Of a stretch of 64,000 nucleotides of DNA, positions 400-62,798 are shown in pieces. The notes beneath the pieces are model-generated. The model was not told the DNA's origin and searched no databases. It saw only the letters and a list, made by a program, of their open reading frames with translations. Each line of letters opens with the position of its first letter. Position 1 is the stretch's first letter. Position numbers and translations under genes: made by a program. Origin of the DNA: Eledone cirrhosa (Eukaryota); contig OZ024743.1 in the NCBI GenBank assembly GCA_964016885.1, forward strand, positions 346,022,001-346,086,000, given 5' to 3'.

Positions 400-2880
400 T
401 ACAATATTTTAGAATACAAACAAATCTGTATGTAACTTCACAAATAGATACACGAAAGAAAAAAAAAAGGGGGTAAATAAAAAACGGGGGGTGGGGTACA
501 GGAGAAGGTACGTGTATCCATGTGATATACTACGCACAGGTAGTATGAGGTGCAAACTTAGGTCCGTATATAGAACAAGTAACAGTAACAAAACAATAAT
601 GACAGTAATAATCATTGTTCCAAAGTGGAAAATGTGGAGAGTATATAGTCACGATTGACGGGGTACATATTCAAGGGGACGCCCGTCCCATTCACCATGT
701 GGCATGGCACCGTGGCTGGGGTGTGCTGTTCTATATGTTTGGGGTATCGGACCGGGCGACCGTGGGCCCCGTGTTAGCCGGTCCCGGCCTAGGCGATGTA
801 TCTGCCCAATGTTGCGTGCTCGGTCAGGTTCGCCCCTGGTTTACATATGTTTACCACACGAGTTGCACAATGTCATCGGGGCATGGCGTCAGGTCCCCTA
901 ATCCCGTTGGGCCTTTCGGGTCTGTGCGTACCCGTTCACATGCCCCCAGCCTGCGCCACCAGGAGGATTCCATGCTGCAAATGTGCATCTTCTCTGGTGT
1001 CTGCAGATCATGATAATTTCAGACTTCAGGTTGACGGCGTCATCCTTCAGTCTGACAATCTCCATCGCCTCGTGTAGGCATAATCGGCACTTTCTACTCC
1101 CAGCCGAATATGACCTCGCATGGCGAACGATACTCCATTCCAGGGCGTATGGAATGCCTTGTTCTTTCATGTCCCCCACCAGATCCGCTAACCTAGTGGA
1201 GTGCCTTTTGCTACGGTCACTGAAGGAATTCGTGTGATTATACATCCGCGATTTAAAGATCGTGGATGTTGCGCCGATGGGTTGTAATCACATACTTGTA
1301 TATCAGGTCCTTAATCAGGAATTTTAACTGTAGGGGGCACTGGGTGCCGGCTCTGCGGTTCCAAGTTCTGTTGTCAGTTTTTACGCATCCGATGTCCGGG
1401 CCTCGATCTGTTATGGCCCTCTCAAGGTTCCCAGGGTGTTGTTCCGCCGACACTGTTGTCTCCTCTATGCCACTAGTTCCCTCTCAACGTTAGATCACTC
1501 ACCCTCAGCGGGCGTTCTTGTCGCCTCGGGGGCCGGGTTTTCATTTGAGGGCCGGTCCCTGGGTGCTTCTCCGCGCTCCGAAAGACGGTCATTCTGTCGC
1601 CGCGGTTGACGGCCAGTGTGCGCCATCTTTATCGCATTAGTTTTAGCAATGTAGTCGGCCATGTTAGGTGCTGTGGTGAAGGAAAACTTCACCGTGTGGC
1701 AGTTGTAGATTTTGTGTTACTTGTTTATCGGCGGAAAGCACTCATCCAACGCTCGGGAAAAAAATCCTGGCACGTTGGTGCGTACATGTTTGGAGTAAGG
1801 CGCATTAAACCAAGTAACGGCCTTAGATCTGTTCCTTCGTGTGCGTGGATTCTTGTTGGGGTGTGCTGGAACTGATGTCCGTCATGTGCTCCGCCCAAGC
1901 ACAATTACATCCCGTGGGTTGTCTCTATCTATTTTCCCGCTATGGGCGTCTGGTTATGCCATTCAGTTATAAAGTTACGTCGTTCTATGTGGTGAGCTAT
2001 ACATCTATTCCCCTAGGTCTATGTGATGGTCCTGTCGGTGCTGTACCACTACAACTAGGCTGGGTGTGCTCCCTGGCGTGTGCCCCGTCCGTATTTGTCG
2101 ATGTCCTGTCCCTGGTCCCAGTTGCTGCGGAGCATGCAGTGTGCGTGCCAGGCCCAGGTCTCTGCGTACTGGGTGGTCTGGCTCCTATGGGTGCCTTTGT
2201 CTTTCCTACGGTCGGTCCTGCGTAAGTAATGTTAGTTGTGTTGCTATTTGTGTTCCTAGATACTGCTACCGGGTCATTTCTTCTACCTAAGGAGGCGCCC
2301 CCGCTATTAGCATTTCTGCACGCCTCATCACTTGGCTCTACTCTGTCCGGGTTATATAATATGATGTCTGTGTAACCGGCCCTGCGCAGTGCCTCATTAT
2401 AATATTCGGCGTGCTGTTTAAACACTTCTGCGTTCGCCGACAGGGTGGATACGCCTTTGGTACCCCTTTAACTATGGCTTATCTGACTGACTTAGGGTGA
2501 TTCGATTGCCTGTTCACATATTGCAGGTTTTCGTTTGGCTTATGGTACTGTCTGTGGATGGCCGTATTCATTTCCAAGGTAACGTCCAGGAAATTGACCG
2601 TCTTAATGCTAGGATCTATTGTCAAGGATAAGCCGTGTTTTAAAAAAAAAGTGCGATATGCGCTTCCTCATGCGCTCCATCTGATTGGGGTTAAGGGAAC
2701 GGAAGTATCTGTATATTCCACCTCCGTTCCCCGGGTCTCCTGTGTTAGCCTATGGATGTGATATATCCCCACAAGGTCGGTCACCTTCGCTGAGTCACTC
2801 GACCCCATGGTGATATCGAAACTCTCCCATAACTTGTCTTCGAATCTAATTAGCGTCTTTCTGGCTGCTACTATGTATCT
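400..2880 (-). mobile_element. Decayed, 5'-truncated Penelope-like element (Naiad-like; RT + C-terminal GIY-YIG), with frameshifts
   Basis: Minus-strand fragments: FDITMGSSDSAKVTDLVGIY (RT core), NFLDVTL..YHKPNENLQYVNRQSNHP (thumb), CPL..LIYK, and RLADLVGDMKEQGIPYALEWSI..YSAGSRKCRLCLHE..NLKSEIIMICRH (GIY-YIG C-terminus). Low-complexity insertion at about 1880-2330. Ends are approximate. Confidence 0.9.
832..883 (-). ncRNA. Degenerate hammerhead-like motif in the 3' pseudo-LTR of PLE 1
   Basis: Minus strand reads CCGATGA-cattgtgcaactcgtgtgg-TAAA-catatg-TA just after the ORF stop. Stem III is palindromic. G12 and stem I are damaged. Confidence 0.5.
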
Positions 2881-3777: not shown

Positions 3778-3910
3778 GATAAATCTAACAAAAGTTTACG
3801 GTAGTGTCCAATCCGTATGAAGAACTCAATGTAATCCGGATATCATGAAAAGAAGAGATGCATTCAAAAATCACTTTCCGTGAAAGATAAACGGAATACA
3901 GAGTCAAGGT

Positions 3911-4155
3911 AAATTATTAAAAAAATAATGAATAAACAAAGAAACAGTTCCTTATATTAAACAAAAAAAGTTCAGCATTTTACGATCGTTTCTAGGACAT
4001 ATATGTGTTAGAAACGATCGTAAAATATATGTCCTAGACATATATTTTACGATCGTTTCTAACACATATATGTCCTAGAAACGATCGTAAAATGATGAAC
4101 TTTTTTTGTTTAATATAAGAAACTGTTTCTTTGTTTATTCATTATTTTTTTTATA

Positions 4156-4159
<4 letters not shown>
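3911..4159. mobile_element. Nested fold-back palindrome containing hammerhead 3' halves
   Basis: Arms of ~120 bp are reverse complements. Each arm contains ttttacgatcgtttc-18 nt-GAAAcgatcgTAaaa. It abuts (TA)n. Confidence 0.8.
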
Positions 4160-4191
<32 letters not shown>

Positions 4192-10680: not shown

Positions 10681-10793
10681 AAGGAGCAACGTGAAATAAA
10701 GTGTCTTGCTCAGGGACATAACGCATCACCTGCTCCGCAAATCGAACTCACGATTGTGAATCCAATTCTTTAACTACTCAGCCACACGCCTTC
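10681..10793 (-). mobile_element. tRNA-derived SINE 5' half (same family as 58978)
   Basis: The reverse complement reads gaaggcgtgtggctgagtagtt..gagttcgatt..ctgagcaagacactttatttcacgttgctcc. Confidence 0.8.
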
Positions 10794-10828
10794 ATATATC
10801 TATATATATATTTACTGTAACACCGGCT

Positions 10829-11620
10829 CAGAGCAAGAGAGTTAAGGCGAAAAAGATATCGGACGCTGAATTTGCCGACGACATAGATCTGGTGACAAAC
10901 ATAGTGAAGGAGGCAGAGTATTTTATGCAAGAGGTGGTAACTGTGTCGATGAGTGTGGAGCTGAGAATGAATGAGATTAAGACGAAGTATCTGGTAGAGA
11001 ATATTAAGAAGCCAGAGAAGATTACTAATGTAGGCGGGAAGCCACTAGAATTGATTGACGACTTCCTGTATTTGGGAGCAAAGATTGGAAATAGGGAAGA
11101 TGATGTGGTCGAGAGGAAGAACAAAGTTTGGGCGGCGTGCCACAGCTTGAGATCGGTGTTGATGTCAGACCTTCATAAAGATCCGTCTCTACGTTGCTGT
11201 AGTGGAGTCTGTGCTGCTGTACGGGTGTGAGACTTAGACACTGACCAGAAACTCACTCAGATGGTGGATGGGTGCTACACAAGAATCCTGAGGATGGCTC
11301 TGAACATTAATACATTGAGGATGAAGAACTCAGAGCTGTACGGGAGCCTCTCAAAAGTCGGCTCGAAAGTGACACAGAGGAGACTGAGGTTAGCTGGACA
11401 TGCTTACCGACATCCAGAGTTGACACTGCACTCAGTGCTCCTGTGCGATCCCCTGCACTGGAAGGGGAAGACCGAGGTTAACATATGGTGATGCCCTAAG
11501 GACAGACACTGGTCTCTTGGAAAGGCAGGACATGGCAGCCATAATGAGGGTCAGAAACCCCTGGAGAGAACTCGCCCATGGATCTCGGGAATGTTACCCG
11601 ACCTAGATAGATAGATAGAT
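10829..11620 (+). mobile_element. RTE-type LINE 3' fragment, decayed
   Basis: EFADDIDL (RT catalytic motif), DDFLYLGAKI, LLYGCET, RRLRLAGHAYRH. Ends in a (TAGA)n tail. Confidence 0.9.
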
Positions 11621-12736: not shown

Positions 12737-13000
12737 AGTGTAACTTGGATTTACTGCAGGTTCACCCGGGTGAGCACTCGATGTTTAGGTTCACTTCTGT
12801 TTCGAGGTGTAGAGCTATACAGAGTGTATTATATTGAAAAGATAACAAGGACGATTGGTTACTCCTTCCTTACATTTATTTGTTGCTGACGCGCGTTTCG
12901 CCACTGATCAGCTCAAGGTGCGATCTGTATCCATCTTACCCGACGCTGTAATCTGCAGATCGACAGAGCCCTTAAAATGCTAGTAGAAAATATCTTTTGA
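12734..13000 (-). mobile_element. pLTR remnant with hammerhead 3' half, between (TA)n tracts
   Basis: Minus strand at about 12885-12905 reads tggc-GAAA-cgcgcg-TC-agc. An ACTCTG...CATCGAGTGCTC motif follows downstream. Confidence 0.55.
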
Positions 13001-14508: not shown

Positions 14509-14511
<3 letters not shown>

Positions 14512-16700
14512 GTAGAACACTGGAAGGTAATATCCGTAGTGTTAGAGGACTCAGTCCATGGGACGAGTTAGGTAGAAGTTGTTACACAACAGTTAGTTCA
14601 CCATACTGAGAACAATTGTTTCAGCTAAGCGGATCCTCAGCTCGTAATCGGCATGGTTATACGGAACAGGAAGGAGAACCGTACGAACGCCCGTGCGCAG
14701 AGACCCGTCACTTCAAACAGGCAATACTAAAATGCGTGCGAGAGGTGTAAGGGAGATAACTGCGAAAGTCCGAAAAGTTTTTAGTTGATAAGAAAAATTA
14801 TTGATGTTGTTACAATAATCCAGAGCTTTGTAGTTATGCAATAGGTGTTTTGAGACGTGTGGACAACGTGTGAAAAATTCATTTCTCGTGTTTAGGCAAT
14901 CACTATTGCATAATCTCTTTAGAATATTTATTCGTTCGTCAATACACAGTCCACACGACGGATTTCCCCTTGCGTATGGCTTGGATTTAGTGATGGCTTT
15001 CCATTGAATGGAGTAGTCTATACTTGAGTCCTTAAGGGACCATGCGTGGCTCGCGAGTTTCGTGGATGAACTTCTGTCCGTGTACCTTAAGGTCGACTGA
15101 TGGTTCAGGAAACGTTCCTTAAATCGGCCCTCCGCTCCGCTTTGCCCACATAGGATTTGACTTCCTGTGGTTGGTTTGGTCGGTTGGAAGTGACCACAGC
15201 TTCATAAATTACAGCTAGTGTGTTGCATTGCTGTTGAAGGGGGAAAGCTTCGGGCTTACGGCAAGAGCACCCTGGTAGGGTGTTGCTCCTAGGGCTGCTG
15301 GTGATGTGGGCCTTGATGTTCTCAGCGCAGGAGTATCCTAGTTTTACTTTGTGTCGGTTAAAGATGGAGCGGTATTTATGACCTATGGGAAAACTGTCTA
15401 TCGAAGAGGGCTAGAAATGTTTTGCTTTCATTGGTTTTAACGTTGAGTGAGAAGGGAGGAGAAAACCAGATAGTTTGTCTAATGTTGCGCTTTCTTTTCT
15501 TATTGCTGTTGTTGATAGTGGGAGAGTAAGTGATAGGTTCTGAGAAGCCGCTGTTATCTAACGCCGTGTTATAGTAGGGTGCCTGCACTGTAAAGGTAGC
15601 CTTATTAGAGGAGAGGTTTGAGATTCTAGTAATGATATTATTTACGAAGTTTCTAAAAACAGTGGGAGGGTGGCATGAGTCCTTGTGAATGTCATTTGGT
15701 TTTTCGTTTAGCTTATGGAAGGGTCTGTGGATGTGTGTGCGAAGGTCTAAATGAATGTCCAAGAAATCTACGCTAGAGAGGTTGGTAGCTACTGTTATAC
15801 TATGTCCTAACTCATTGAAGGTAGAAGCTAAGTCTTTTTTAAACCAGTCGAGGTCGTGACCACTTTTATGGCTCGATAAGGTCAGTCCATCGTCGCGGTA
15901 TATTCCCGTGTGGAAGTCCGGGGAATCTAACACGTAATATGTCTAAAATAAATAGGCCAACCAAGTCACATACGTCAGCACTGTCAAACGATCCCATGGA
16001 GACGTCGAATAGGTCTGAAGTTGTAAACTTCTTTGCCCAGGCTACTCCGTCGTTGAAGAGGAGGGTTTTCCGGCAGTGAGCGATGATTTGCCTCTCTAAA
16101 CCATCGACGGTAGTGTAAGTGGTAGCGAAGTCCAACGCTTTGTTTAACAGGGTATCTGAGATCGACGGATAAAAATCGACAATGTCAAACTGTGTGAACT
16201 TCGCTTTTTTTTATTTTAAGGAATTAAACCACTTAATTGCGGAGTCGCTGTTCTCCCACTGGGGCAGGTTGGACTTGGTCTAATGGTCTTAACTATGTTT
16301 CTAAGTACCATACCTGTGCGTGCCGGTTTATTAGTCTACATCTGGGGTTAGAAGTAAAGTCTACCTTGTGATCTTTCAGGGGTTAGGAACGCCTCCTCTT
16401 AGCTACGGATTGTAGCTTCTTATCTACCTTAAGGGCGGCGGCAAGTTGTTTGGCTTCTGTATTAATGTCGTGGTAGGGCCATATGGTTAGCTTTCTTGTA
16501 TTTGGAAGTAATAGCTTCATGGGCCAGGTGGCGGAAGCATGCATTTTAGTATTGCCTGTGCAAAGTGACGGGTTTCTGCGCAAGCGCGTTCGTACGGTTG
16601 TCCTTCCTGTTCCGTATAACCATGCCCATTACGAGCTGAGGATCCGCTAAGATCAAACAATTGTTCATGGTATGGTGAACTAACTGTTGTGTAACCACTT
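14509..16700 (-). mobile_element. Decayed Penelope-like element (Naiad-like) with a 3' pLTR and an inverted pLTR at the truncated 5' end, inserted in (TA)n
   Basis: FDIVDFYPSI, FDVSMGSFDSADVCDLVGLFIL, GIYRDDGL, VDFLDIHLDL, WFSPPFSLNVKTN, CSCR..PLQQQC..VIYEA..SYVG, CGLCIDE..LNTRNEFFTRCPH. 14570-14735 is inverted at 16541-16700. Confidence 0.95.
14604..14646 (-). ncRNA. Type I hammerhead ribozyme in the PLE 2 pLTR
   Basis: tacgag-CTGAGGA-tccgcttagct-GAAA-caattg-TT-ctcagta. Homologues at 16630-16672 (+, G12C), 36109-36151 (-, GAAG) and 36197-36239 (decayed). Confidence 0.75.
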
Positions 16701-16772
16701 GTGTATATATATATATGCTCCAGCATGGCCTCAGCCGGATGGCTGAAACACGTAAAAGAGTAAAAGAGTAAA

Positions 16773-19892: not shown

Positions 19893-20122
19893 TATATATA
19901 TATACATATATATATATCCTATGAATGGATGAAACAGTTATAAGTGAATAAATGCTTTGAACATAGCTTTGATTCTTGTGAATTCTATATAACTGCTCTG
20001 TAGAACAACTGATGCTATTACATTGAGCTATTTATCTTACTGGTAATAAGGTAGTAATAAATTACTGACCTTCCCTGTTTATAGGTTAAAGTATACATAA
20101 CTATAAATAGTATCCTTAATAT

Positions 20123-21024: not shown

Positions 21025-21262
21025 ATAGTTATGTAATAAACAACATAAGGCAATTATTCCATTTACCAGTGGTTTCTTAAAAGCAAATTCAATAAACAGA
21101 CCAGGATTTTTTCATTCTGAGGATTGAAAGCAAACTTTTTTGCTTTTAAGAAACCACCGGTAAATGGAATAATTGCCTTATGTTGTTTATTACATAACTA
21201 TTAAGCTCTGTTACCGACACAGAGCACTCTTTTTTCCTGGACTCTTCCGACGGAATTACTTC

Positions 21263-21268
<6 letters not shown>
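21025..21268 (+). mobile_element. Fold-back pLTR element between (TA)n tracts
   Basis: 21025-21087 is the reverse complement of about 21139-21201. Confidence 0.85.
21111..21168 (+). ncRNA. Intact type I hammerhead ribozyme
   Basis: ttcatt-CTGAGGA-ttgaaagcaa(loop)ttgcttttaa-GAAA-cc acc gg-TA-aatgga. All three stems pair. Confidence 0.9.
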
Positions 21269-36013: not shown

Positions 36014-36265
36014 GGGGTAGAACACTGGAAGATAATATCCGTAGTGGTAGAGCACTCAATCCATGGGACGAGTTAGGTAGAAGTGGTAACACAACAGTTA
36101 GTTCACCATACCGAGAACAATTGCTTCATCTTAGCGGATCTTCAGCTCGTAATGGTCATGGATATACGGAACCCTCTTCCGTATAACCATGACCAGTACG
36201 AGCCAAATATCCGGTAAGGTGTAACAATTGTTCTCGGTATGATGAAATAACTGTTGCGTTACCAC

Positions 36266-36270
<5 letters not shown>
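36014..36270. mobile_element. Solo fold-back pLTR of the PLE 2 family, between (TA)n tracts
   Basis: 36016-36172 matches 14511-14667 and is then inverted at 36177-36268. Confidence 0.9.
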
Positions 36271-36492: not shown

Positions 36493-36683
36493 ACAAAGAA
36501 ATTGTGGTAAGGAACCACATGGACCATAATTCACCAGTGTACTCAATACTTAGGTTAGTAGAGTGGGAAATTGGAAAAAGTATGTCTCCGACGGCAGAAC
36601 TTAAGCCGTTTCGACGGCTATTTCTGGACACCAGAACTAGCAGTCGAAACGGCTTGAGCTCTGTCGTCGGGGTCATACTTTTT

Positions 36684-36686
<3 letters not shown>
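36493..36686. mobile_element. Family W fold-back element
   Basis: Apex near 36629. Arms ggaaaaagtatg..cgacggctatttctgg / ccagaactagcagtcg..catactttttcc. Confidence 0.85.
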
Positions 36687-37657: not shown

Positions 37658-37858
37658 AAACGAAGGAGTTGTGGTAGGGAACCAGATGGACCATAACGCA
37701 CCAGATTACTCAATACTTAGGGTAGTAGAGTGGGTAATAGGAGAAAGTATGACCCCGACGGCAGAGTTCAAGCCGTTTCGACGGCTATTTCTGGACTAAA
37801 CTAGTCTAGAAATAGCCGTCGAAACGGCTTGAGCTCTGCCGTCGGGGTCATGCTTTCT

Positions 37859-37862
<4 letters not shown>
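37658..37862. mobile_element. Family W fold-back element
   Basis: Near-perfect arms at 37737-37797 and 37802-37863. Confidence 0.9.
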
Positions 37863-37900
<38 letters not shown>

Positions 37901-37909
<9 letters not shown>

Positions 37910-38052
37910 TGAGATTCTACAGGACTAGAACTGTTTCATTCTTTAGAAACCATCAGGAATCTGATGATTTCTAAAGAATGAAACAGTTCTAGTCCTGTAG
38001 AATCTCATCTATATTAAAACTTTTATACTCTGCTATTCAACCCGGAATAACG
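37901..38052. mobile_element. Hairpin element (56-bp arms, 4-nt loop) built from a hammerhead
   Basis: The minus strand of the left arm reads agattc-CTGATGG-tttctaaagaat-GAAA-cag ttctagtc ctg-TA-gaatct. The right arm carries CTGATGA at 37961. Confidence 0.9.
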
Positions 38053-38440: not shown

Positions 38441-39292
38441 TTTACATTCATTTAAATTATTGACGTATTGTTTTATTGATATTTTTTATCTGTTTGGCCC
38501 GAATCTTCCTTTATCGATTTTAAATCGTATGGTTGATTGTAGACTTGTTCTATATGTGACGGTATTTTAACGATAGTTATAGCTCTGATTCATCTGAATT
38601 ATTGAGCCCTCTGCCGTTCATATCGAATTTCGTTTATCGTGAACTCGTGCGCCGATTTTTCGATACTCGATCTTTCTAATATATTTAGCTCTGGACATAG
38701 CTATCCACCAGTTAATTTTATTGCTCATTTTTTGTCGATTCTATTGAGTGATGAATAGCTTTTGTTTTATTTTAACATGTCTATTGAGCACTCTAATTCG
38801 ATATGTGTATTTCCACATTCACTCGAATTGTTTTCGCGGATATAGGGGTCATCTCCCTTGTCTAATGCCATGTGCGTTTTTCACCGCTAGTTGACTCCTC
38901 TGCCGCCAGGAAAAAACTCGTTGATAACGTAAACTCCGTTCCACTTACTCTAGTAGGCTTTTATATTTATATGTGAGCTGATAGAGTACAGTCTAAGGAT
39001 TTACAGAAACCCATGAAGCTAGATTTAACACCTTTCTAGTGGGTCCGGGTATGATTTTACATTCATTTAAATTATTGACGTATTGTTTTATTGATATTTT
39101 TTATCTGTTTGGCCCGAATCTTCCTTTATCGATTTTAAATCGTATGGTTGATTGTAGACTTGTTCTATATGTGACGGTATTTTAACGATAGTTATAGCTC
39201 TGATTCATCTGAATTATTGAGCCCTCTGCCGTTCATATCGAATTTCGTTTATCGTGAACTCGTGCGCCGATTTTTCGATACTCGATCTTTCT

Positions 39293-39456: not shown

Positions 39457-39569
39457 AATTAGTATATCTACCAACATATATATACAGATGCATACCTATG
39501 CTAGCAAATATATAGGTTTTGTCTTAGTAACTTTGTGGTTCAATGCGAGGGGATGCAGAACAATTATAT

Positions 39570-39677
39570 GAAAGACGTAAAATAAGAAAATTATAAAATT
39601 AACTTACTTACTATAATTTTAGTAAATAAGTTTTAGTAAGTAAGTTAATTTTTATAATTTTCTTATTTTACGTCTTT

Positions 39678-39678
<1 letters not shown>
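39570..39678. repeat. AT-rich fold-back hairpin
   Basis: gaaagacgtaaaataagaaaattataaaa..cttacta / tagtaag..ttttataattttcttattttacgtctttc. Confidence 0.85.
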
Positions 39679-39755
<77 letters not shown>

Positions 39756-40115: not shown

Positions 40116-40215
40116 GAATAATATTAATAACTCCAGAAATCTTCATTGGAGAGTGCTTTTAATCTATAGTAAAACTATATTCATTGAGTAATCAATGAAC
40201 CATATTAATCTTTGG

Positions 40216-47029: not shown

Positions 47030-47174
47030 AGGAAAATGTTCAAGACCACGACAGCAGAGCACGAGCCGTTTCGATGAGGTTTTGAAAATGTTCCTATTAC
47101 CCACTCTACTACCCTAAGTATTGAGTCATTTGGTGCGTTATGGTCCACCTGGTTCCTTACCACACTTCCTTCGT

Positions 47175-58977: not shown

Positions 58978-59250
58978 TGAAGGCGAATGGCTTGGTGGTT
59001 AGAGCATTAGGTTTGCAATCGAAAGGTTGTGAGTTCAATTCTCGGACCGGCTGATGTGTTGTTTCTTTGAGCAAGACACTTTATTTTACGTTGCTCCAGT
59101 TTACTCAGCTGAAAATGAGAACCAGCAATAGCTGGAGGTTTAACCCTGAGATGGAATGGTGTCCTGTCCAGGGGGGAGTCTTGTACTCTCAGTCGCTTCA
59201 CGCCATGAAACCGGGATAAGCAACGGCCAAATGAGCCTTCTGGCTTAAGA
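58978..59250 (+). mobile_element. Full-length tRNA-derived SINE (Meta-like core)
   Basis: A box TGGCTTGGTGG, B box GAGTTCAATTC and core ttgagcaagacacttt..aaccctgagatgga..tccagggggg..gaaaccggg. Confidence 0.85.
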
Positions 59251-59270
59251 CAGACTTTAGACATTATATA

Positions 59271-59600
59271 TATATCGCATAAGAAACGGAGAATCAGTGG
59301 TGCGACGAAATAGAATTTACAACATATTATAATCGTTTCTCTGGTGACCAGCTCGAGGCACGATGGATACGATGATCGAACCTGACTCTGAAACCGCAAG
59401 TTCTGGTCAGGTTCGATTATCGCATCGATTGTGCCTCGAGCTGGTTGCCAGAGTAACGATTGTAATATGTCTAATAAGTTCTAATTCGTCGCACCACTGA
59501 TTCTCCGTTTCTTATGTGATATTATACTCTGCTCTGTAAGAGCATCGAGTGCTCAAACGGCCTACCGCATACGGACGCTTTAAGCATCCAATACCAAATA
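59271..59600. mobile_element. Older fold-back pLTR element with a hammerhead 3' half
   Basis: Arms 59271-59390 and 59401-59522. The arm consensus is ccaga-GAAA-cgattg-TA-atatgt. Several mismatches look like CpG decay. Confidence 0.8.
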
Positions 59601-59832: not shown

Positions 59833-60319
59833 TGGCAGTTACCACAATTCCGGTTTATATTTATTTTCTTGATTTTTTCTTAAATTGAGACAAGCAAACC
59901 CTATTGTCTATAGTTAGTATTCTTTTCACCTTAGCGAATCCGGTCCCTTACGATTTGAACACATATATGTATATATCTGTGTTCGTTTTTCTTTTATATT
60001 CAATTATAATATACGGCTCGGAAATATCTCTTTCTTAGAGCTATTTTGTTGTAAGAGACTATTTTGAGTTCCTAACTCAATATATACCTTTCATATACAT
60101 AATTATGTGTATGTTTGTATGTTTATTGATCTGTCTATATACCCCTTACTGGTTCTCCATCTCTATCTAACACTCGTAATGCATATGTATATACGTGAAT
60201 GAGTGTGGGTGTTCCAATACACCGGCACACATACATATAGACAGTCAAACATACAAACACACACACACACACGCCCCCCCCACACACACATATATGTATA
60301 TATATATATGTGTGTGTGT

Positions 60320-62505: not shown

Positions 62506-62698
62506 AGGAACGAGTAGGACCCCGACGGCTGAGCTCAAGCCGTTTCGACGGCTAATTTAGTTCAGAATTAGCCGTCGAAACGGCTTGAGCTCAGCCGTCG
62601 GGGTCCTACTCGTTCCTATAACCCACTCTACTACCCTAAGTATTGAGTACTTTGGTGCGTTATGGTCCACCTGGTTCCTTACCACATTTCCTTCATTA
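62506..62698. mobile_element. Family W perfect fold-back element
   Basis: Arms 62503-62557 and 62566-62620 are identical. The sense arm reads GAAA-cggct tgagctc agccg-TC-ggggtc. Confidence 0.9.
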
Positions 62699-62798
62699 TA
62701 TATATATATATATATATATTATATTATATTTAGAGTTTAAACTCAAAGTCATTTACAATTAATCAGCTCAAAGAAAGAAGCATTTCCGAGCAGTGAAA

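Follow-up and report, generated by a model that had tools for sequence, protein, structure and literature searches.

A hairpin of approximately 25 nt, with the consensus RCTC, a variable stem-loop, a 2-nt bulge, GAGY and RCTY, is a real, clade-wide feature of Hydra-clade Penelope-like elements (PLEs) and is positionally tied to both ends of their insertions. The hairpin belongs to a pair in the leader of these elements, in the order hammerhead, hairpin 1, hairpin 2 and ATG, and the second copy, which had been overlooked in the initial annotation of this DNA, lies beyond the end of the inserted copies. On the basis of sequence comparisons, we consider it likely (probability approximately 0.7) that each hairpin serves as a docking site on the RNA for the reverse transcriptase (RT) of the element and fixes an internal start immediately 5' of the hairpin. 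Throughout this study, the window refers to the whole stretch of Eledone cirrhosa DNA that was analyzed, with a length of 64,000 nt.

Structure and covariation of the hairpin

All eight hairpin sequences named in the initial annotation were present in the window at or near the positions, and on the strands, that had been assigned to them, and further copies were observed. In the list below, site A is the insertion-end site just before hairpin 1, and site B is the one at the end of the tail, just before hairpin 2.

59276..59518 (+): fold-back body of family 6, two back-to-back 5'-truncated copies of the element 3' region; the inverted arm ends at site A
59519..59597 (+): 79-nt tail of family 6, spanning the stretch between sites A and B, with (TA)n behind it
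59526..59554 (+): hairpin 1 of family 6, with a 4-bp outer stem, a 6-bp inner stem, a 2-nt 3' bulge and an RCTY extension
62625..62652 (+): hairpin 1 of family 0, in the fold-back 62507-62616; 80-nt tail at 62617-62696
47103..47130 (+): hairpin 1 of family 0, in an asymmetric fold-back
37704..37731 (-): hairpin 1 of family 0; fold-back 37740-37860, tail 37658-37739
36537..36564 (-): hairpin 1 of family 0; fold-back 36573-36685, tail 36493-36572
36050..36073 (-): hairpin 1 of family 5, with a 1-nt bulge; fold-back 36080-36268 with a hammerhead, tail 36014-36079
14545..14568 (-): hairpin 1 of family 5, inside the tail (14509-14572) of a long PLE copy
14509..16703 (-): decayed 5'-truncated Hydra-clade PLE, with an inverted arm to site A, RT, C-terminal GIY-YIG, hammerhead, and tail to site B
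12772..12825 (-): hairpin 1, loop enlarged; a hammerhead-like stretch lies upstream
21205..21229 (+): hairpin 1 with G-C as the first pair; fold-back 21028-21198, tail 21199-21265
40130..40158 (+): additional hairpin copy, absent from the initial annotation, immediately behind an inverted-arm end
38582..38611 (+): additional hairpin copy, with a duplicate at 39197-39226
60016..60045 (+): variant hairpin, bulge of 3 nt, that follows an inverted arm; a related hairpin lies at 62762-62791 (-)
19995..20032 (+): additional hairpin copy with a longer loop

The 3' pyrimidine bulge described earlier is 1 nt in the copy at 36073, and in the copy at 21205 the bulge consists of CA, or else the stem is a perfect 7-bp helix. 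The hairpin at 36050-36073 sits in a short fold-back that derives from family 5, the long copy of which is located at 14.5-16.7 kb, and the families of the 12825 and 21205 hairpins are not tied to an open reading frame (ORF). In the fold-back at 37902-38052 (+), a deletion that includes the hairpin's 3' half has reduced the tail to 38 nt, compared with approximately 71 nt for family 2 tails. A tRNA-headed SINE-like element at approximately 58980-59260 (+) is located immediately 5' of the 59526 fold-back, and a piece of a different non-LTR reverse transcriptase was observed at 10760-11230 (+). In all copies, GAGY and RCTC (window 59547-59554) form a near-palindrome, which is perfect in some family 0 copies and could be involved in RNA-RNA pairing or in competition with the outer stem.

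Genome-wide (3.0 Gb), a tight hairpin pattern gave 10,368 matches compared with 52 for a backwards control, counts in which overlapping starts may be included twice. Within 860 kb at blind-chosen positions, (TA)n was found 30-90 nt downstream in 59 of 85 anchor matches, compared with 2 of 11 in the reversed sequence. An Rfam scan of the window produced 284 matches (E <=1), the best 150 of which were all under the gathering score, and none of these 150 covered a hairpin of this motif as such; the sub-threshold matches were microsatellite-driven microRNA families only.

The covariation of the inner stem, as claimed in the initial annotation, was borne out by metagenome copies collected with an anchor blind to inner pairing, which consisted of CTC and GAGNNCT only. 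From 58 anchors in metagenome loci retrieved by protein alone, 14 with an ambiguous 5' start were discarded, the remaining 44 were reduced to 38 non-redundant copies, and one at a contig edge was removed, leaving 37. In the 2-nt bulge register, inner pairs 1-4 were Watson-Crick in 36/37, 27/34, 21/29, and 13/23 copies, respectively, compared with shuffle means of 18.3, 10.9, 7.9, and 7.4, and the observed values were reached in 0, 0, 0, and 186 of 20,000 shuffles; in bulge registers 0, 1, 3, and 4, Watson-Crick pairing was at chance level. The four predicted variable pairs occupied ranks 1-4 among 378 column pairs. The first outer pair was G-C in 33 of the 37 copies, U-A in two, and A-C in two, and it is A-U in the present genome.

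Ten disjoint pairs of closest relatives, chosen by identity (40-86% protein identity), provided 48 cells, 32 unchanged and 16 changed; among the changed cells, ten showed two-sided change, three were kept via G-U, and three were broken, a count in which hairpin 2 of locus L178 was entered at a wrong 5' start that can only lower the score. A model-fitted alignment was 97% paired, with two-sided change in five of seven pairs, and this is secondary evidence, as the covariance model was trained on these same sequences and its alignment leans to structure. Upstream of ORFs, the anchor was found 48 times in sense and four times in antisense orientation in 8,298 bases, compared with 15 and 17 times on the two strands in 63,530 bases of coding sequence.

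Unusual thermodynamic stability of single hairpins was ruled out by the z-scores of seven folds, which ranged from +0.50 to -2.35; thus, the evidence for the hairpin is comparative, not thermodynamic. The first inner pair had a predicted probability above 0.5 in just 16 of 37 folds, and loop length varied from approximately 3 to 90 nt across hairpins. A strand test based on the first non-Watson-Crick cell counted six cells of G-U type versus four of C-A, which does not separate RNA from single-stranded DNA. In the minimum-energy fold of the family 0 leader, hairpin 1 pairs with hairpin 2 instead; at L267:6120-6310 (-), the 5' half of hairpin 1 and the 3' half of hairpin 2 pair over 9 bp, and this predicted pairing could be a switch masking both signals.

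Hairpin pairs in the leaders of Hydra-clade elements

The families carrying the hairpin had been taken as unrelated, a view that we revise: four are tied to Hydra-clade ORFs, and a fifth, family C, is tied to an ORF start of the same look. They are related because the hairpin belongs to PLEs of the Hydra clade, a clade of C-terminal-endonuclease PLEs (Craig et al. 2021, PMC8557442). The motifs listed for this clade are an RWK-type motif, DKT, a CxCX5C linker, and CxxC and CxH around conserved E and N (PMC8557442). In agreement with this list, the family 0 protein P0031 contains RWR, DKT, CNCPDRSIC, CNLC, and CKH, and the tandem masters of this family (the 62625 family) carry an intact 719-aa ORF with RT plus a C-terminal GIY-YIG endonuclease. 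The copy at 14509-16703 (-) contains a decayed RT and GIY-YIG ORF at 14.7-16.6 kb, a CxCX5C linker, and a hammerhead core from 14640, and, in its linker and in the flanking cysteine motifs, this copy agrees with the definition of the Hydra clade given in PMC8557442. Hydra-type ORF starts were also observed behind family 6 (the 59526 family) and in family 4. The assignment to the Hydra clade rests on these motifs, and the tree of RT loci comprised only loci gathered in this analysis. A Pfam search of five proteins at E 0.01 gave no match, and a protein search with the endonuclease piece gave none at near lengths.

As for other characteristics of the clade, 147 of 163 ends joined (TA)n, and the family 0 tandem unit, with 3.54 kb, exceeds the size of under 3 kb that Hydra-clade PLEs "generally" have (PMC8557442). 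The hammerhead core was present in families 5, 6, and C and in most metagenome loci. In family 0, the hammerhead (L267, approximately 130 to 25 nt before hairpin 1) has kept stems I-III and lacks the CUGANGA core, and its loop 2 contains TATA-like and initiator-like sequences, called by promoter consensus: an initiator-like hexamer at -66 and a TATA-like box at -95 relative to hairpin 1.

Head-to-tail arrays of 3.5-kb Hydra units were observed in L267 (G000:C1:91474001-91484000), with ORFs of 719, 717, and 719 aa, and also near G000:C1:437200340; the L267 ORFs represent a young family that is suited to biochemistry. A second decayed Hydra-type ORF at approximately 980-2820 (-) of the window was 72-78% like the family 6 masters, with no hairpin seen at its 3' side. 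Nearly all family 5 endonuclease matches contained one TGA, which is probably the natural stop, the query having extended past the usual C-terminus.

The presence of hairpin 2 behind site B in masters, and its absence from inserted ends, was predicted before the search, on the premise that a start lies immediately 5' of every hairpin. Hairpin 2 was indeed found past site B in tandem masters of five families (0, 6, 5, 4, and C). In family 0, with 513 matches, an intact hairpin 2 was observed in 19 of the 20 loci viewed (16 places), with an ATG approximately 65 nt later, and these loci sit in 3.5-kb tandem units. Family 6 masters likewise continue past site B into hairpin 2 and an ATG; ten of 20 loci ran on into the hairpin 2 sequence and the ORF start, and the hairpin was intact in five of them. 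For family 5, seven of 29 loci retrieved via the 5' part of the ORF had site B upstream, and six of these seven continued into a long-looped, imperfect hairpin 2, with a loop of approximately 90 nt and a mismatched first pair, which was part of the predicted fold in two of three copies. Two patterns for this hairpin gave nine and seven genome matches, none of them a master, because the copy starts with U and has a long loop. Hairpin spacing was 68, 78, 79, 90, and 91 nt in the five families, and the tails measured in four families (64-66, 72-82, 79-80, and 87-94 nt) lengthened together with it.

The same arrangement was observed in metagenome loci, 77 of which were retrieved with protein alignment only. 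Among 37 metagenome ORF starts, 22 had two hairpins, nine had one, and six had none; the tandem spacing in the 22 was 57-83 nt, and hairpin 2 was followed by the ATG after 5-45 nt. In 17 of 19 measurable cases hairpin 1 was located 47-63 nt past the hammerhead GAAA, which confirms the earlier placement of the hairpin downstream of the hammerhead.

A search of the PLEs of other invertebrates, as the initial annotation had suggested, revealed the hairpin in published coral, sea cucumber, and copepod Hydra consensus sequences. We inspected the six new Hydra consensus sequences of PMC8557442 by eye: Hydra-2_Amil (coral) and Hydra-2_Ajap (sea cucumber) have hairpin 1 at the 3' end, Hydra-1_Ajap has both hairpins at the 5' end, and Hydra-1_Crog (copepod) has variants at both ends. 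The sequences of Hydra-1_Amil and Hydra-1_Obim end before the hairpin, and there was no clear hairpin copy in the inspected 5' stretch of Hydra-1_Obim. In the supplement of PMC8557442, four of six matches to the core 9-mer were in Hydra consensus sequences, and the remaining two were in coding-looking stretches without a hairpin. Although these published consensus sequences themselves contain the hairpin, neither "hairpin" nor "stem-loop" occurs in the main text of PMC8557442. A Neptune-like family of the present genome (L354-L378; L083 (-) 2392), with its clade judged from the linker, has two end sites approximately 60 nt apart within an apparent ORF start and the same heptamer at both, and no GCTC/GAGC hairpin at either site. 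Thus, the hairpin pair appears to be a Hydra-clade solution rather than a general one for PLEs.

Insertion ends, tails, and fold-backs

The insertion unit consists of (TA)n, an arm, an inverted arm, a tail of 60-90 nt, and (TA)n. Most hairpins were located directly behind one arm of a long inverted repeat, the other arm of which abuts (TA)n. The hairpin opens the tail and is not merely near the 3' end, where the initial annotation had placed it. Its distance to the downstream (TA)n, put earlier at about 40-60 nt, was 40-50 nt after GAGY at the eight sites and 38-94 nt for other copies in the window; the distance that is tightly kept runs instead to the end site a few nucleotides upstream of the hairpin.

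In families 0, 5, and 6, 145 of 163 matches ended at site A or site B, two ended elsewhere, and for 16 no (TA)n was called. Both sites are located at TA(T), mostly 2-7 nt 5' of a hairpin. Measured from the final nucleotide in common with the master, the distances to hairpins 1 and 2 were mostly 5 and 3 nt in family 0, 6 and 3 nt in family 6, and 4 and 2 nt in family 5. End positions were more scattered in families 4 and C, with several family C ends 15-29 nt away, and of seven metagenome ends, four were at 2-3 nt from the hairpin, two at 11 nt, and one at 105 nt. At the metagenome locus L141 (440-480), a (TA)n run sits precisely at the junction of the tail and hairpin 2, as though site B of this element had itself been the target. 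In an independent sequencing run, possibly from the same animal, loose (TA)n ends preceded hairpin 1 by 6 nt and hairpin 2 by 4 nt, in 279 and 68 contigs for the two sites, and strand-switch joints were close to the 5' boundary.

The two sites were combined strictly in back-to-back pairs, with 48 A+B, one B+B, no A+A, and ten unclassified pairs. Because the 22 family 6 A+B pairs retrieved with an A+B query are biased, we considered the sets that were not selected by end structure, in which all 26 classified pairs were A+B (18 from the blind sample and eight protein-fetched). Such strict A+B pairing speaks for the joint use of both hairpins of one RNA in a single event, and this would point to two RT units.

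Among 30 copies, the fold-back centres varied; the (TA)n-joined ends at sites A and B were precise, and the ends at the centres were ragged. The possibility that the fold-backs are a MITE or DNA-transposon family copied whole was rejected, as the centres differ among these 30 copies, the tail makes the ends asymmetric, and the arms match the 3' region of the PLE masters. The hammerhead cut was also rejected as the 5' boundary of family 0 fold-backs, the cut site being at -25 and the boundaries at -70 to -56 in 29 of 48 matches.

A motif-free scan for tailed fold-backs in 864 kb (the window and 80 stretches of 10 kb, three of them adjoining the window) revealed at least 65 tails in 25 clusters, a lower bound since the fold-back filter removed some true copies. 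By eye, approximately ten of the 25 tail clusters open with the motif or a variant, and the remainder, mostly with shorter tails, are without it; clusters 3, 7, 8, 9, 11, 13, and 18 are fold-back families with tails of 22-56 nt and no motif. Tailless structures accounted for 146 of 264 inverted pairs (3910-4160, 39569-39679, and others), each counted from both strands; they are symmetric, sit in TA repeats, and are probably MITE-like. The blind sample extrapolates to approximately 200,000 hairpin-bearing tails genome-wide.

Proposed mechanism, alternatives, and implications

The initial annotation regarded the hairpin as a recognition signal for the RT or the endonuclease. The conserved covarying structure is most likely such a signal, and of the two proteins, the geometry of the hairpins and ends favours the RT as the probable reader. 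By analogy with PAc, an element of another PLE clade, sites A and B would be RT start sites. The endonuclease would nick both strands of (TA)n, and two RT units would act on one RNA, one per hairpin, each pairing a nicked TA end with the UA(U) that precedes its hairpin and copying towards the RNA 5' end, and the two truncated cDNAs would be joined back to back. The B copy would include hairpin 1 as the tail, the A copy would be without it, and hairpin 2 would never be copied into an insertion end. The observed equality of tail length and hairpin spacing would follow from an internal start set by each hairpin. Full-length jumps would need a transcript reading into a second, tandem unit, since insertion ends are devoid of hairpin 2 and only such a transcript carries both signals downstream of the ORF; that PLEs require tandem copies has been reviewed (PMC6765202). 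Transcripts begun at a putative promoter of the leader itself would give rise to abundant short fold-backs, which would be uniform if such transcripts were copied to their 5' end after approximately 60 and 140 nt. We propose more tentatively, at somewhat less than even odds, that the two copies form an RNA operator, in which an RT pair on hairpins 1 and 2 of one RNA programs twin priming and makes both insertion ends. If true, this would explain the tail, the inverted pLTR, why tandem copies are required, and the approximately 200,000 short fold-backs, and the hairpin pair would be a portable signal turning any RNA into a two-ended template.

In the Poseidon element PAc, the tail is flanked by two adjacent internal RT starts, nicking and extension take place on both target strands, RNA located 3' of the starts has to be present, and hammerhead cleavage is dispensable (Frangieh et al. 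2024, PMC11167929). The PAc starts are located inside the ORF in an AC-rich stem-loop, whereas the sites described here are in the 5' leader, each before one motif copy; in addition, no binding motif was defined for PAc and its priming was reported to occur without homology, whereas 2-4 nt of TA homology were observed here. The Hydra elements of PMC8557442 and those described here have the same protein motifs, insert into (TA)n, and possess a hammerhead (lacking the core in family 0), 5'-truncated copies in inverted orientation, and a tail, which is 30-40 nt long there compared with 60-90 nt here.

Other readings of the same geometry were weighed against the docking of RT. Identical geometry would be expected if the hairpins directed RNA cutting or 3'-end formation just 5' of themselves and the RT started from free RNA 3' ends in a LINE-like manner, and PAc RNA-seq read ends have been reported on the start sites (PMC11167929). 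However, cutting at A or B on separate molecules predicts A+A and B+B pairs, which is at odds with the pair counts given above; the PAc product was unchanged when the RNA 3' end was extended (PMC11167929), and no Rfam family reached threshold among the best 150 of 284 matches in the window. We consider this reading unlikely, and similarly so a signal at the DNA level, in which the endonuclease would read the motif in duplex DNA or folded cDNA and cut beside it, resolving the ends to A and B. Craig et al. explained the tail by resolution through the endonuclease (PMC8557442), recognition by the D. virilis endonuclease depended on the tail (as cited in PMC11167929), the strand test is compatible with single-stranded DNA as well as RNA, and the (TA)n run in L141 stands exactly in front of hairpin 2. 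Nevertheless, loops of approximately 3-90 nt and freely swapping inner pairs are ill-suited to duplex recognition, and B-ended copies are without hairpin 2, which a cDNA begun at B would not contain.

The hairpins might also be template boundaries on an antisense RNA, which the RT approaches before it halts a few nucleotides away, similarly to the boundary element of telomerase. An antisense template has been proposed for PLEs (PMC3846280), and the A-C first outer pair (2 of 37) would be G-U on the opposite strand; yet precise (TA)n-joined ends at A and B with ragged centres are what starts at these two sites usually leave behind, PAc works from sense RNA in vitro (PMC11167929), and B-ended copies would need passage through hairpin 1, so that this account appears very improbable. 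We give equally little credence to a hairpin pair that controls mRNA translation or stability, with ends set only by chance through nearby TA microhomology. The distance to the ATG is close and fairly constant, and the AT-rich leaders offer TA at many offsets before the hairpins, but many other leader TA steps are unused, and families 0, 5, and 6 use one offset per hairpin. A translational role could be additional to end-setting.

Docking of the RT, the reading that we prefer, has counterparts in the RT-docking stem-loops of hepadnaviral epsilon, of R2 and other LINE/SINE 3' ends, and of group II intron DIVa, in which a bulged hairpin carried by the RNA of the element is regarded as selecting the template and fixing where copying begins. 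The present hairpins likewise have compensatory structure and a fixed position relative to the ends, which are taken as starts by the PAc analogy. Those systems are not known to use more than one working signal per RNA, whereas here two copies appear to serve a single event, with the start located 5' of the hairpin and the signal itself left uncopied. Telomerase, the sister RT family of PLE RTs, is similar in that a neighbouring protein-bound helix fixes the internal template position and a short primer pairs with a simple repeat; its boundary helix lies 5' of the template and stops synthesis, whereas the present hairpins are located 3' of the copied stretch and would initiate synthesis. In L1 twin priming, two cDNAs from opposite target strands on one RNA also result in inversion, but the second primer lands variably, whereas both places are fixed here and marked by a repeated motif. 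No description of the motif was found in the passages of open literature that were searched.

PLE reverse transcriptases are the closest mobile relatives of telomerase, and both their RNA recognition and the reason for the optional tail and inverted copy have been open since the elements were described. The tail and inverted-copy features are called undefined in PMC8557442, and the PAc binding region was narrowed to 172 nt, without a motif, in PMC11167929. A covarying 25-nt motif that is present twice and aligned with both ends makes point-mutation experiments feasible, and intact young ORFs are present in this genome. The motif ranges over molluscs, corals, echinoderms, and crustaceans. The hairpins give a rule for annotating the boundaries of Hydra elements, and a very large class of MITE-like fold-backs may be reclassified as abortive PLE copies.
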